This document shows, one piece after another, positions 2,985 through 7,135 of a stretch of DNA of 64,000 nucleotides; positions within the stretch are counted from its first letter, which is position 1, and each line of letters begins with the position of its first letter. The position numbers and the translations under genes are program-made. Source of the stretch: Escherichia coli (GTDB lineage Bacteria; Pseudomonadota; Gammaproteobacteria; Enterobacterales; Enterobacteriaceae). The notes under the pieces were generated by a model. The model did no database searches. It worked only from the letters and a program-made list of their open reading frames with translations, and had not been told where the DNA came from. The DNA lies in assembly GCF_001677475.2 (NCBI RefSeq), contig NZ_CP015229.1. One strand, 5' to 3'.

Positions 2985-3764
2985 ATGTTTCACGTGGACA
3001 ATAATACGGGTGTGCCTGTTATGCCGCCTGTTGCGGCTGAATTAAGCAAAACAACGCTTTATTTCACCGAAGGCGGGAACGGTATTCCAGCCACTTATCC
3101 AGGACCAGACTGGTTTAATATTATTCAGTCTGAACTGCTGGAAATTCTCCGGCAGGCAAATATCAAACCGGATAAAAATACCACCAACCAGATTATGACG
3201 GCGCTGAAAAAACTGTTTATTACGAACAGTGGTTCAGCCGGAGCTATTGCTGGATTAACCGGTGAGAATAATACGTTCCCGTATTTTACCGGCGAAGACG
3301 AAATGGCATTAACGCCGCTCAGTGCGTTTGTGCGCGGCATTCTTGGTAAAACCACAGCCGATGAAATTATTGATGCACTTTCATTACGTGACACGGTAAA
3401 TAAAGCCAGTAGTGCCGTACCGAATACCCGCAGGGTCAACGGCATGGCCCTGACTTCAGATATCACCATCAGCAACATCAGCGGCAACGCCGGAACGGCA
3501 ACCCGACTTCAGACGGCCCGCAGGATTAACAATGTGCTGTTTGATGGTTCCGGTGATATCACAATCCCTGCCGGGATGAGTCAGTCCACAGCGGATGCGC
3601 GTTATGTTCAGAACGTTCAGTTAGGTGCGCAGGTACAGGGGGGATCTCAGGCACCCACAGGGTGTGTGGTCACCTTTGTTGATGGCGGCGAGAAGATGGA
3701 ATATATCCAGTATAAACCCCTGCAAATTTATATTAACGGCGCATGGCGCACGATATCCGGTTAA
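2985..3764 (+). CDS. Tail fiber protein (Mu S-type N-terminal region), short form
   Basis: 259 aa; N-terminus MFHVDNNTGVPVMPP...LYFTEGGNG...PDWFNIIQSE typical of Mu/P2-type fiber constant region; followed directly by a tail fiber assembly gene. Confidence 0.6.
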   Translation: MFHVDNNTGVPVMPPVAAELSKTTLYFTEGGNGIPATYPGPDWFNIIQSELLEILRQANIKPDKNTTNQIMTALKKLFITNSGSAGAIAGLTGENNTFPYFTGEDEMALTPLSAFVRGILGKTTADEIIDALSLRDTVNKASSAVPNTRRVNGMALTSDITISNISGNAGTATRLQTARRINNVLFDGSGDITIPAGMSQSTADARYVQNVQLGAQVQGGSQAPTGCVVTFVDGGEKMEYIQYKPLQIYINGAWRTISG

Positions 3765-3778
3765 TTAAGGAGAAAATA

Positions 3779-4309
3779 ATGGAACTCAGAAACGTCACGC
3801 GTTATTACCCTGAAGATATGCCTTATGGTGAAAATATTCAGTATTTCCGTAGTGAAGACGGGCAGGATTTTTATGAATCGCTGGATAAATTCACGAAGAA
3901 ATACAAATTGTGTATTCACCCGGAAACCGGCGTGATTTATTCGATGGCAGAAGACGTGTCCCGTCTTTATCCGGCGGGGTTCACTATTGTGGAAGTGGAC
4001 GAACTGCCGGAGGGTTTTGGCATTGAAGCCTGCTGGTATTACCGGGATGGCGAAGTGCTGCCGGTTCCGGTTGATTATTCGCAACTGGCAGAAAAGCAAC
4101 GCCAGCGTCTTCTGGCTGAAGTCAGGGACATCACCTCCGACTGGCGAACCGAGCTGGAGTTGGGCACCATCAGCGACGATGACAAAGCCCGTCTTACGCA
4201 GTGGATGGCATATATCAAAGCGGTGAAGGCGCTGGATTTAAGCACCGTTACTGATGAAGCCTCCTTTAATGCCATCAACTGGCCGGAGCGTCCCGATGCC
4301 GCAGCTTAA
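3779..4309 (+). CDS. Tail fiber assembly protein (Tfa)
   Basis: AAGGAG RBS then ATG at 3779 (track ORF 3743..4309, start moved to M13); Tfa-family sequence; stop overlaps the next fiber gene start. Confidence 0.75.
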   Translation: MELRNVTRYYPEDMPYGENIQYFRSEDGQDFYESLDKFTKKYKLCIHPETGVIYSMAEDVSRLYPAGFTIVEVDELPEGFGIEACWYYRDGEVLPVPVDYSQLAEKQRQRLLAEVRDITSDWRTELELGTISDDDKARLTQWMAYIKAVKALDLSTVTDEASFNAINWPERPDAAA

Positions 4310-6545
4310 AGGTGTGATTAAAACGCCCACGGGAGAACCGCTGGGCGGCGCAACCATTACTCTGACCTCCCTGCACAACCGTGCAGGGATCCTGAAAGGT
4401 GTTTTCAGCCACGTCACCACACAGAGCGGGGAGTACGACTTCCCCGTTCTGCCGGGTGTGTACAGCGTTCGCCTGACACAAAGCACACAGCGCCTTTCAG
4501 AAATCGGTGTCATCCGCGTTTATGAAGATTCACAGGACGGTTCGCTGAATGATTTTCTGGGTGCAACCGATATTGACCTGCGCCCGGAAGCCCTGAAGAA
4601 ATTCGAGGAGCTGGCGCAACAGGCGCAGCAAAGCGCGGAAGAAGCCGGAGAGCACGCGGACGCGGCTGAACAGGCCCGCCAGGATACAGAAACCCTCGCC
4701 GGGGAAATACAGCAGGATGCAGAAGAAATTGCAGGCAATGTGCAGAAAGCTGAAGAGCTTGCCTCTGAAACCAGTCAGAATGCAGCCCGCGCAGAGCAGG
4801 CTGTCAAGGATGCCGACACGATAGTCCGGAAAGCGGTCGATAAACTTGCTGATGCTGCAACGCTGAGCGGCGAGGCAAAAGCCAGTGCCGGAGCTGCCGC
4901 ACAAAGCGAACAGAATGCGGAAAATCACGCTGATAATGCAGCACAAAGCGCACAGCAGACCGCGCAGGATGTGCAGGCAACGGTCACAGCCCGCAGTGAT
5001 GCGGAACGTTTTGCGGGTGAGGCAGAAAACAGCGCACAGTCATCAGGCACAGCGCGGGACGAATCAGTCGATGCCGCCGAACGCGCCCGCCTTTATCATA
5101 ATGCCGCATCATCAGCTGCAACCAGCGCGGAAAATGCAGCAAATGCTGCACTCGGGCATGAAAACAGCGCCGCCGAATACGCCCGACAGGCTAAAGCCAG
5201 CCAGGATGCAGGTGCAGACAATGCGCAGGAAGCGAAACAGTACAGGGATGAGGCGCAGCAGATAGTTGATGACCTGAATGCAACAAATGCCTCCACGACA
5301 GAAAAAGGTCTGGTGCAACTGTGTAGTGATACGGACAACGACAGCGAGGAACTGGCTGCCACGCCAAAGGCTGTCAAAACCGTCATGGACGAGACGAAAA
5401 CAAAAGCGTCACTGGACAGCCCGGCTTTCACCGGCACCCCAACCACCCCAACCCCACCGGATGATGCCGCCGGTCTGGAAGCAGCGAACGCAGCGTTTGT
5501 GCGCAAACTGCTTGCTGCGCTGGTTGGTTCATCGCCGGAAGTTCTGGACACCCTGAACGAGCTGGCAGCGGCGCTGGGCAATGACCCGAACTTTGCGACG
5601 ACAATCACAAACGCGCTGGCAGGCAAACAACCGCTTAATGACGTCTTAACGGCAATCAGCGCACTGACGCAACGGGCAGATAATCTTCTGTACTTCAATA
5701 CAGACGGGAATGCCTCACTGTCTCCGCTGTCAGAGAAGGCCCGCGCATTACTGGCGCATGACACGGCTGAAGCCATGCGCACGGAGCTTGAGCTGAGCGC
5801 GGCTGCGACGATGGAACCCCAGAGTGATATCCGTGACCGCACACCGGGCAGGCTGGCCCTGTCCGGGATGTATGGGTTTGGACAGGCATTCACCAGCGCC
5901 GAAGCTCTGTCATTTAACGGACAGGCTGATTTCGTTATATGGCTGCAGACAGTCACACCGGGGCGTTATGCGGTCAGTATTGCGGACTCCTCCACGCTGC
6001 TGAAGGGGACCACGAAATTTAACGGTATCATTGATGTGATGTGGTCACCGTCTGATAACGACGAATCAGACACGGCGCGTAAATTCAAAACGCTGCTGTA
6101 CTACAACCAGTATTACGAGGATGAGCACAGCATACATTGTATGCGTTATCGCTACAGTGGTAACAGCTGGAATGCAACATCAAGCCTTATTGTGTATGAC
6201 GGCAACTCCCTGGCATATCTGATGTCCTCAACCGCCGGTAATGGTCCGTTCTCATATTACCAATACCCGGCCGTCGGTGTGCCGATTATGGCGGTATATC
6301 AGGGAGAAAGTTTTGGTGAAAATGCTTCTCTGGGACTCGGTGATACTGTGCCGGGTTCCCGTCTTGGTCCTCTGGCCATGAGTGCACAGGTTAGTGATAC
6401 AGGGACATACGCATCCTCACCGCAGGTTGTGATTGGCGGTGCCGGTGAATACAACTTCCCCGGTCGTTACACGGCGCTTTCGGGCCTGGGTAACAATTAT
6501 GGTACTCAGCGTGGCTTTATCGGTCTTTTTGTACGCATTGAGTAA
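4296..6545 (+). CDS. Side tail fiber protein (lambdoid Stf-like) with Ala-rich coiled-coil shaft
   Basis: 750 aa from ATG MPQLKGVIKTPTGE (track ORF 4254..6545); motifs VYEDSQDGSLNDFL, LAATPKAVKTVMDETKTKASLDSPAFTGTP, LNELAAALGNDPNFATTITNALAGKQP are shared with E. coli prophage side tail fiber proteins (from memory). Confidence 0.85.
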   Translation: MPQLKGVIKTPTGEPLGGATITLTSLHNRAGILKGVFSHVTTQSGEYDFPVLPGVYSVRLTQSTQRLSEIGVIRVYEDSQDGSLNDFLGATDIDLRPEALKKFEELAQQAQQSAEEAGEHADAAEQARQDTETLAGEIQQDAEEIAGNVQKAEELASETSQNAARAEQAVKDADTIVRKAVDKLADAATLSGEAKASAGAAAQSEQNAENHADNAAQSAQQTAQDVQATVTARSDAERFAGEAENSAQSSGTARDESVDAAERARLYHNAASSAATSAENAANAALGHENSAAEYARQAKASQDAGADNAQEAKQYRDEAQQIVDDLNATNASTTEKGLVQLCSDTDNDSEELAATPKAVKTVMDETKTKASLDSPAFTGTPTTPTPPDDAAGLEAANAAFVRKLLAALVGSSPEVLDTLNELAAALGNDPNFATTITNALAGKQPLNDVLTAISALTQRADNLLYFNTDGNASLSPLSEKARALLAHDTAEAMRTELELSAAATMEPQSDIRDRTPGRLALSGMYGFGQAFTSAEALSFNGQADFVIWLQTVTPGRYAVSIADSSTLLKGTTKFNGIIDVMWSPSDNDESDTARKFKTLLYYNQYYEDEHSIHCMRYRYSGNSWNATSSLIVYDGNSLAYLMSSTAGNGPFSYYQYPAVGVPIMAVYQGESFGENASLGLGDTVPGSRLGPLAMSAQVSDTGTYASSPQVVIGGAGEYNFPGRYTALSGLGNNYGTQRGFIGLFVRIE

Positions 6546-6559
6546 TGAGGAAATCAGGC

Positions 6560-7135
6560 ATGAAAATCAGAGCGGTGAAAGGTATCAGAAACGCACATTA
6601 TCTTGAAAATGGTGCGGTTGACTGCGAGGTGTTATTTGAAGGTGAAACGGAGTTCGCCCTGTATACTGCCATACAGGATGATATGGCCCCGACAGGCCAG
6701 CACATCTGGCAGGAGCTGCAAAGCGGGAAATGGGGCGAAATCGCCCCGTTCACCGTCACGCCGGAACTTATTGCAGCGGCAAAGGATGCCAAAAGGCGGG
6801 AAATTGAGGCATGGCGCGACAGTCAGGAAAACGTTGAGTTTATTTTCACGTTTGATGGCCGTCGTTTTGATGGCGGAAAAACCTCGCAGTCACGCCTTGC
6901 CCCCGTGGTTGCAGCAGCGCAGGCCGGACTGCTTCCGGAGGGATTTTTCTGGACTGATGCGGATAATAACAACGTCGTACTGACCAGGGAGAAACTTATT
7001 GCGCTGAACGATGCCATGATGGTGGCCATGGTGACGGAGGGCTTTAAAATCCACGAACGCCAGCGCGAGATGAAAGAGCAACTTTCCCTGCTGTCCACAC
7101 TGAGCGATATAAGAGCGTTAACGCCCGGTTATTAA
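6560..7135 (+). CDS. Tail fiber assembly protein (second copy, different family member)
   Basis: Start MKIRAVKG with GAGG RBS (track ORF 6545..7135); Tfa-like sequence immediately after the Stf-like gene. Confidence 0.75.
   Translation: MKIRAVKGIRNAHYLENGAVDCEVLFEGETEFALYTAIQDDMAPTGQHIWQELQSGKWGEIAPFTVTPELIAAAKDAKRREIEAWRDSQENVEFIFTFDGRRFDGGKTSQSRLAPVVAAAQAGLLPEGFFWTDADNNNVVLTREKLIALNDAMMVAMVTEGFKIHERQREMKEQLSLLSTLSDIRALTPGY

Follow-up and report, generated by a model that had tools for sequence, protein, structure and literature searches.

Two co-oriented tail-fibre cassettes and no detectable Gin-type switch in a Mu-like Escherichia coli prophage

Layout of the fibre region

We analysed a stretch of 64,000 nucleotides (nt) of the Escherichia coli chromosome (contig NZ_CP015229.1 of RefSeq assembly GCF_001677475.2; hereafter the window), of which positions 1-8204 form the right end of a Mu-like prophage. 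Along the + strand, the end of a gpP-like baseplate gene is followed by gp45-, gp46-, gp47- and gp48-like genes, then by four fibre-related genes, and finally by com and mom. The four fibre-related genes are the subject of this text. An earlier note on this DNA had described them as two tandem pairs of a tail fibre and its helper on one strand, and this description was borne out: the four + strand open reading frames (ORFs) match tail-fibre families. The features on which the argument turns are listed below (lengths in amino acids, aa).

2397-2981, + strand: baseplate wedge protein gp48 (BW3, YmfQ family); phrog_203, E 1.8e-62
2985-3764, + strand: short Mu-S-type ('mini-S') baseplate fibre, 259 aa; phrog_1833, E 1.4e-80
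3779-4309, + strand: tail fibre assembly chaperone (Tfa) of the Mu U / lambda Tfa type, 176 aa; Pfam Caudo_TAP, 2e-21, and phrog_136, E 1.8e-57
4296-6545, + strand: long fibre, 749 aa; phrog_2636, E 2.7e-176
4296-4580, + strand: N-terminal immunoglobulin (Ig)-like anchor ('collar') of the long fibre, about residues 1-95; Pfam phage_tail_N, 1.3e-26
6560-7135, + strand: DUF4376 protein, 191 aa (196 aa if read from the ATG at 6545); Pfam DUF4376, 4e-19, and phrog_1141, 4e-80

The short-fibre gene starts 4 nt past the gp48 stop. Its assignment is based on matches to PHROGs and to the Protein Data Bank (PDB), as a Pfam search of the protein returned no domain. Residues 1-81 match residues 1-81 of Mu gp49 (PDB 5YVQ/9KI1, E 5.6e-19), and residues 204-258 of the tip are 37% identical to residues 437-502 of Mu S, at the extreme C-terminus (pairwise E 1e-7). 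In comparison to Mu S (504 aa) both ends are present and about 245 residues of the shaft are missing. On the 322-position family profile, residues 1-126 correspond to positions 1-113 in two matched stretches. The arrangement is that of a Mu gp49-type fibre: an N-terminal anchor encoded directly after gp48, a tip, and a Caudo_TAP chaperone downstream. The gp48 of the window matches Mu gp48 in PDB 9KI1 (E 2e-21), with conservation of the region that aligns to the fibre-docking loop; in Mu, the docking site of gp49 comprises gp48 residues 133-155 (PMC11915804). We presume gp48 to be the docking partner of the short fibre, for which, judging from these alignments, the Mu mode of docking through the gp48 loop should apply as well.

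The Tfa is collinear with both Mu U and U' over its full length (24% and 31% identity). Its start is most likely at 3779 and not at 3743, because an AAGGAG motif, a strong Shine-Dalgarno sequence, lies 6 nt upstream of the ATG and because relatives are annotated from the equivalent start; consequently, it would not overlap the short-fibre gene. At its other end the Tfa gene does overlap: the long-fibre ATG at 4296 falls within its final 14 nt (ATGCCGCAGCTTAA), and this overlap is invariant among relatives, even in combination with a different Tfa subtype.

The long fibre is made up of the anchor, a helical shaft rich in Ala, Gln and Glu (probably a coiled coil) and a variable tip. Pfam assigns phage_tail_N (PF08400, prophage tail fibre N-terminal) to the anchor and finds in addition a Phage_fiber_2 repeat. 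Two stretches of the gene (nt 4776-5830 and 5337-6829) share 84-86% DNA identity with stf genes of lambdoid and other phages. The homologues of the anchor, on the other hand, fall into two groups: one with at least 67% identity (this lineage; E. coli, Shigella and Salmonella) and one with at most 45% (lambdoid phages; lambda itself 41%). Since the anchor groups apart while the identity to stf genes starts only around nt 4776, the sequences indicate that the anchor is the lineage's own clade and part of its conserved backbone, and that trade is confined to the distal parts. When the anchor was searched for in one genome of each species, no match was obtained, though the exact peptide patterns used there reach only near-identical sequences.

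The long fibre resembles a lambda-type side tail fibre (Stf) in that a PF08400 domain is followed by a long helix, as seen from Pfam, from an AlphaFold2 (AF2) model and from a Foldseek match to PDB 9E7M. It departs from this type in two aspects: the gene downstream belongs to the DUF4376 family instead of encoding a Caudo_TAP Tfa, and the gene context is that of a contractile tail (sheath, tube and Mu-type baseplate in the complete relative L038; gp45 to gp48 in the window). Several statements of the earlier note can be settled here. The 259-aa fibre is indeed Mu S-type, with both anchor and tip alignable to Mu S, and the stop and start of the Tfa and long-fibre genes do overlap; the long fibre, however, counts 749 aa from ATG 4296 and not 750. 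The label 'lambdoid Stf' holds for shaft and tip but not for the anchor, whose fold is also that of the neck-fibre anchor of the Vibrio myophage XM1. Finally, the long fibre does not come with 'its own Tfa', as no similarity was found between the DUF4376 protein and the first Tfa.

The start of the DUF4376 gene is probably at 6560. A PDB sequence search with the protein found no relative, and DUF4376 has been listed as tail-fibre chaperone of the Alteromonas phages V22 and A5 (PMC10579305). The gene lies directly 3' of the fibre gene in the relatives of the prophage, in phage phiP27, in Rac-SA53 and in SerU-LTIIb. It probably encodes a chaperone or tip partner of the long fibre. Variants among the relatives bear on such a role. 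Locus L013 retains the anchor and helical region in a 605-aa protein with a globular head, and lacks the DUF4376 gene, which would be in line with a service of DUF4376 to the fibre tip; in loci L003 and L016 the fibre tip and DUF4376 are lost together.

These variants have further peculiarities. The second receptor-binding protein of L013 (11888-13705) ends in a globular head of 400 residues, and its layout resembles the collar spike of XM1. In L003 (4098-6154) and L016, a repetitive tail at the C-terminus brings gp48 to 324 aa, an extra ORF of 352 aa precedes the short fibre, and the long fibre is cut to 156 aa.

Inversion elements and relatives of the prophage

The earlier note had pointed out that neither an invertase nor an inverted fibre set is present, and our searches agree with this in the ranges covered. 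Using tblastn with Mu Gin (E<=10), we found no homologue in the 64-kb window, in the related loci or in a complete 35-kb relative, while both positive controls (Mu and the Mu-like phage LC727881) were found. The gix core AAACCNNGGTTT has no match with up to one mismatch in the window (2.55 expected by chance); the same search in Mu gives two matches, exactly at both boundaries of the Mu G segment. There are no inverted repeats longer than 23 nt in 2000-9200. Inverted fibre genes are equally absent: in the window as in every lineage locus, the + strand carries all fibre and helper matches. None of the three traits of a Mu/P1-type invertible switch that we tested (an invertase, gix/cix sites, an inverted second set) was thus found. 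A diversity-generating retroelement or repeat-based phase variation was considered and rejected, as 2000-9200 contains neither a reverse transcriptase nor repeats.

In the control phage LC727881 (a Mu-like phage inside an Stx2c phage; L005, 8001-10515) the Gin homologue is 75% identical, and a fibre tip with Tfa is inverted. A single Tfa gene is visible there, inside the invertible part.

The features between the fibre genes and the prophage end are as follows.

7136-7257, no strand: spacer of 122 nt before com, read from the sequence; no room for gin
7258-7443, + strand: com; phrog_13819, E 6e-39
about 7352/7442-8089, + strand: mom; phrog_1384, E 2.5e-82
8183-8204, no strand: Mu-type prophage right end (...GCGTTTTTCGTGCGCCGCTTCA), identical to the final 22 nt of Mu

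In Mu, a gin gene of 582 nt lies between the G segment and com; here there is just the 122-nt spacer after 7135, so that the claim of the earlier note that no recombinase separates the fibres from com is also correct. DNA similarity to Mu begins only at 7268. Over com, mom and the right end the nucleotide identity with Mu, SfMu and D108 is 88%, whereas the adjacent structural proteins are only 31-38% identical to those of Mu; this difference argues for exchange of a Mu-like end module between distant transposable phages. Consequently, Mu was not a suitable baseline for the comparison made in the earlier note: only com, mom and the end are close to Mu, and the lineage as a whole is without gin. 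Given that it is only distantly Mu-like, a G segment was never to be expected.

To place the module in its lineage, we compared the window with 32 IMG/VR loci recovered with gp48 and with annotated E. coli genomes. Wherever the contig is long enough, the same order is found on one strand: gp48, S-type fibre, Tfa, PF08400 fibre, DUF4376, com and mom. The second fibre is reached in 24 loci (window included), of which 17 have an intact gene (443-1040 aa), 4 a truncated one (156-347 aa) and 3 run off the contig end. The short-fibre homologues (253-366 aa) are full-length and intact in nearly every relative; in ETEC1732 the protein also counts 259 aa, at 90-98% identity. Among 5,426 complete E. coli genomes, the junction from Tfa to long fibre is present in 42 (at a coverage of at least 80%) to 58. 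About 1% of the complete E. coli genomes thus harbour a prophage of this lineage, whose layout is standard and not a one-off. Relatives are inserted in different host genes (nrfB, flhA, irp1), as expected for a transposable phage. The complete 35-kb relative in flhA carries transposase A and B, Gam, Mor, and head and contractile-tail genes, and no recombinase of any kind.

A profile of identity between the window and 28 lineage loci shows where variation is located: positions 1-3300 are conserved, 3300-4100 variable, 4200-4600 conserved, 4600-7100 variable and 7100-8100 conserved. The conserved backbone ends around nt 3300 (residue 105-130 of the short fibre), after which the short-fibre tip and Tfa vary. 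The island at 4200-4600 comprises the Tfa C-terminus together with the long-fibre anchor and is aligned in all 23 loci that reach it; beyond it, the shaft and tip of the long fibre and DUF4376 are highly variable up to the conserved com and mom. Both anchors are conserved and both distal parts hypervariable. The earlier note took the region for a mosaic host-range module; a recent mosaic is not upheld by this pattern, given that the long-fibre anchor belongs to the conserved backbone of the lineage and the order is the same in all 23 loci reaching it.

Two relatives show irregularities in individual genes. In L037 (10136-11701) the short-fibre gene is split by an insert of about 1.2 kb between anchor residues 40 and 18. 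In L038, the complete relative from ETEC1732, two tail genes are annotated as frameshifted (27578-27972 and 31144-32215); the frameshift in the tail assembly chaperone may be programmed, and that in the baseplate gpP gene may render the copy defective.

At the right border of the prophage, two further observations can be made. Of three GATC sites in the spacer region 7136-7260, two are separated by about 20 nt and one overlaps the com start, an arrangement that recalls the Dam/OxyR-controlled mom promoter of Mu; the 122-nt spacer itself appears promoter-like in sequence. From 8205 on, the DNA is host sequence, 99% identical to an E. coli vgrG/Rhs island. Comparison with a strain that lacks the prophage places the insertion 126 nt into a hypothetical gene of 531 nt upstream of vgrG. 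This interrupted gene sits just upstream of the vgrG / DcrB-like / Rhs cluster; its remnant at 8205-8609 encodes a HEMMH metallopeptidase-like motif and is followed by a small ORF of low GC content (8606-8962). The insertion may thus have disrupted a type VI effector together with its immunity gene.

Two fibres on one particle: proposal and alternatives

We read the four genes, with fair confidence, as a host-recognition module of two co-made fibre cassettes, in which host range changes by tip swapping without Gin-type inversion. In cassette 1, the short fibre would dock on gp48 through its Mu gp49-type anchor after being folded by the Mu-U-type chaperone. Cassette 2 would provide the long helical fibre with its Ig-like collar anchor (PF08400), helped by the DUF4376 protein. 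Both would be expressed together from one late gene string, yielding a particle with two receptor specificities at once, and host range would shift through horizontal replacement of distal fibre parts along with their helpers; for the long fibre, this would include exchange with side-fibre genes of lambdoid phages. Joint expression is proposed because the genes are co-oriented, because the long-fibre gene shares its first 14 nt with the Tfa gene, and because no terminator-like hairpin is found in the intergenic gaps. We infer co-transcription and co-assembly, along with the chaperone role of DUF4376. A scan with promoter and terminator consensus patterns yielded no usable signal: terminator-like matches outnumber those in shuffled sequences, but most belong to the − strand, and the few + strand matches fall within genes. 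That two fibres are made together and not alternately, as the earlier note proposed, is still the simplest and best supported reading of the gene organisation and of the conservation among relatives, even though the Mu baseline used there and a recent mosaic were not supported.

The site of attachment of the long fibre was approached through its anchor. In sequence, the best solved matches of residues 1-185 are XM1 gp40 (E 1.2e-10 over residues 3-185, phmmer) and the StfN domain of Ur-lambda (E 8.9e-10). The AF2 model of the anchor (mean pLDDT 75.2) consists of six strands plus one short helix, connected through a linker of low confidence (91-97) to a helix at 98-154; it is a model of the monomer, and a trimeric coiled coil is outside its reach. 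With Foldseek, the best match of this model is Ur-lambda StfN (9E7M; target TM-score 0.85, 40% identity), followed by the XM1 gp40 neck spike (7KJK; 28% identity, E 5.9e-7). The neck-fibre anchor of cyanomyophage A-1(L) is a weaker match (19% identity, E 1.9e-3) and the collar fibres of siphophage Bxb1 are weaker still. As in XM1 gp40, a homologous Ig-like N-terminal domain is followed by a helical region. In XM1, six gp40 trimers bind the neck proteins gp4 and gp5 (PMC10457771); for the neck fibre of A-1(L), the binding partner is gp5, likewise a neck protein (PMC10966104). In Ur-lambda, 12 StfN domains form a collar around the gpV/gpM junction of the bare tail tube, which carries four fibres (PMC12617516). 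A position at the neck is proposed because the match to XM1 and the weak one to A-1(L) both point there, and because the site used in lambda would be covered by the sheath. From these comparisons, anchoring of the long fibre at the neck and not at the baseplate would be about an even call.

A number of points weigh against the proposed module and should be kept in mind. Of the prophage, no more than the right 8.2 kb lies in the window, and the phage collection contains no cultured phage of the exact lineage (best baseplate J 55% identical). The suggested co-transcription draws on gene packing together with a weak consensus scan. The anchor is nearer to lambda StfN than to XM1 gp40 in both identity and fold, and therefore the neck is not favoured by homology alone. 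Truncation of the second fibre in 4 of the 24 loci shows that it is dispensable at least for maintenance of the prophage. Finally, co-variation between the long-fibre tip and DUF4376 across loci is weak (Spearman 0.28, permutation p about 0.06).

Among the alternatives, a branched or piggy-back fibre fares best, though we consider it unlikely: here the long fibre would dock on the short fibre or on a retained Tfa, similar to LtfA/LtfB of the T5-like phage DT57C. In its favour, the cassettes are never found apart, and a single conserved island spans the end of the Tfa and the long-fibre anchor. Moreover, conservation of the short fibre does not stop at its 81-aa anchor but continues to about residue 134, which might provide an extra docking surface. 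However, the motif that makes up residues 87-134 recurs in the long fibre and in many other fibres, and as such looks more like a recombination joint than a docking surface. In addition, the lambda and XM1 anchor folds bind ring proteins of tail or neck and not another fibre, and phiP27 keeps a PF08400 fibre despite a first fibre with an unrelated N-terminus.

We give still less credence to the idea that the long-fibre cassette is a decaying passenger from a lambdoid prophage, unable to attach to a contractile tail. The 84-86% DNA identity of shaft and tip to the stf genes of other phages would fit such an origin, as would the truncations in 4 of 24 loci. Yet the anchor forms a lineage-specific clade (at most 45% identity to lambdoid anchors) with conservation in every locus, the 14-nt overlap does not vary, and phiP27 has the same layout. 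Long intact ORFs persist in 17 of the 24 loci although their tips differ greatly, and this requires continued selection.

Very improbable, in our opinion, is an alternate use of the fibres by means other than Gin, that is, by regulated translation at the overlap or by an invertase acting in trans. The long-fibre start does lie inside the Tfa gene, so that its translation could depend on that of Tfa; such coupling, however, normally enforces joint and not exclusive expression. A trans-acting invertase would find no gix-like sites or inverted repeats, and the region shows no reverse transcriptase or repeat tract. The last option, that the 259-aa ORF is a non-functional remnant of a truncated S gene and only the long fibre works, can practically be dismissed: the protein has half the length of Mu S and no Pfam domain, but it keeps both Mu S ends and lacks only shaft, matches its family from the first profile position (E 1.4e-80), has the same length in ETEC1732, and has intact relatives of 253-366 aa with varied tips and matching intact Tfa. 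The check for a truncated S or pseudogene that the earlier note had called for was thus run, and the outcome is that the fibre is not truncated, because both Mu S ends align and its full-length homologues are intact.

Comparison with other phages and biological meaning

The likeness to Mu lies in position and in cassette 1: the fibre genes follow gp48 and precede com/mom, and a Mu gp49 anchor is combined with an S-like tip and a U-type chaperone. Mu, on the other hand, has gin, gix and an inverted S'/U' set, whereas the second specificity is encoded here by a co-oriented gene with a different anchor. The fibre has 504 aa in Mu against 259 aa here, and identities are low for baseplate J (38%) and gp48 (31%). 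By baseplate J, Klebsiella phage Kp4866-3 (55%) and Mu-like phages of Vibrio and Shewanella (49-51%) come closest among phage records. In Kp4866-3 and in a sister clade from IMG/VR, gp48 is likewise followed by a tandem of receptor-binding genes, again without an invertase (a 251-aa fibre, a chaperone of about 290 aa, and a second protein of 585 or 790 aa without matches to other fibre parts). There, both proteins share the S-type anchor, whereas in the window the second anchor differs. These tandem pairs lie in L034 (10585-15505) and L039 (7667-11064), and with one type of anchor the two proteins would share a single docking site.

A close parallel in layout is the Stx2e phage phiP27 (NC_003356, L54-L57), with a Mu-type contractile tail, baseplate genes and the same four-gene order, after which attR follows. 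Its genes encode a 332-aa fibre, a Tfa of the Mu-U' type, a 490-aa fibre with PF08400 anchor and a DUF4376 protein, and the annotation from the tail genes through attR shows no invertase. It differs in having attL/attR-type ends, in not being transposable, and in a first fibre with an unrelated N-terminus; identities to the window are 37% for the anchor, 28% for the tip and 54% for DUF4376. We found no functional study of the phiP27 fibre genes in the literature, nor a description of this module in searches on Sp18, on Mu-like phages with side tail fibres and on phiP27 morphology. A 'Traversvirus P27' (PMC12502783) was considered as the contractile-tailed phiP27 of NC_003356 and rejected, as it is classed there as a podovirus.

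Parts of the module can be recognised in other systems. The Stf of Ur-lambda (9E7M) has the same N-terminal fold, a flexible linker, a helical shaft and exchangeable distal parts, but it belongs to a non-contractile tail and a Caudo_TAP Tfa, whereas the tube here is sheathed and the partner is DUF4376. XM1 gp40 (7KJK) and A-1(L) gp82 share the Ig-like anchor followed by a helical coiled coil, on a contractile tail with a simple baseplate; these are neck fibres, while for the long fibre of the window a neck position is a proposal, and its gene adjoins those for the baseplate fibre. Two fibre types on one simple baseplate have been described both for A-1(L) (PMC10966104) and for Shigella phage Sf14, where the baseplate is Mu-like and the two have similar baseplate-binding regions (PMC11821841). 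Both Sf14 fibres attach at the baseplate, in contrast to the different anchor of the second protein here. In Alteromonas phage V22 (gp26/gp27), a DUF4376 gene directly follows its fibre; fibre family and host are different, and for the E. coli protein the chaperone role is a prediction.

Summarizing, the layout is real but fairly ordinary: it is standard for this prophage lineage and is also present in phiP27. The G-segment switch then appears as the special case of Mu and its closest relatives (D108, SfMu), with LC727881 also having Gin, whereas this E. coli lineage and the Klebsiella-type sister clade would carry two permanent receptor-binding proteins that are changed by recombination. This bears on host-range prediction for prophages, on the traffic of fibre tips between lambdoid siphophages and Mu-like myophages within a single host species, and on the choice of scaffolds for retargeted phages or tailocins. 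A mildly interesting point is the docking site of a lambda/XM1-type anchor on a Mu-type contractile tail. We tentatively suggest, as a possibility that falls short of a firm expectation, that the PF08400 long fibre of this lineage and of phiP27 is a neck fibre and a true host-range determinant. If true, one anchor fold would serve two sites, namely the tail-tip collar of lambdoid siphophages and the neck of temperate phages with contractile tails, and distal receptor-binding parts with DUF4376 helpers would move freely between both morphotypes. The virion would then search for hosts with its neck fibres and commit with its short baseplate fibres.

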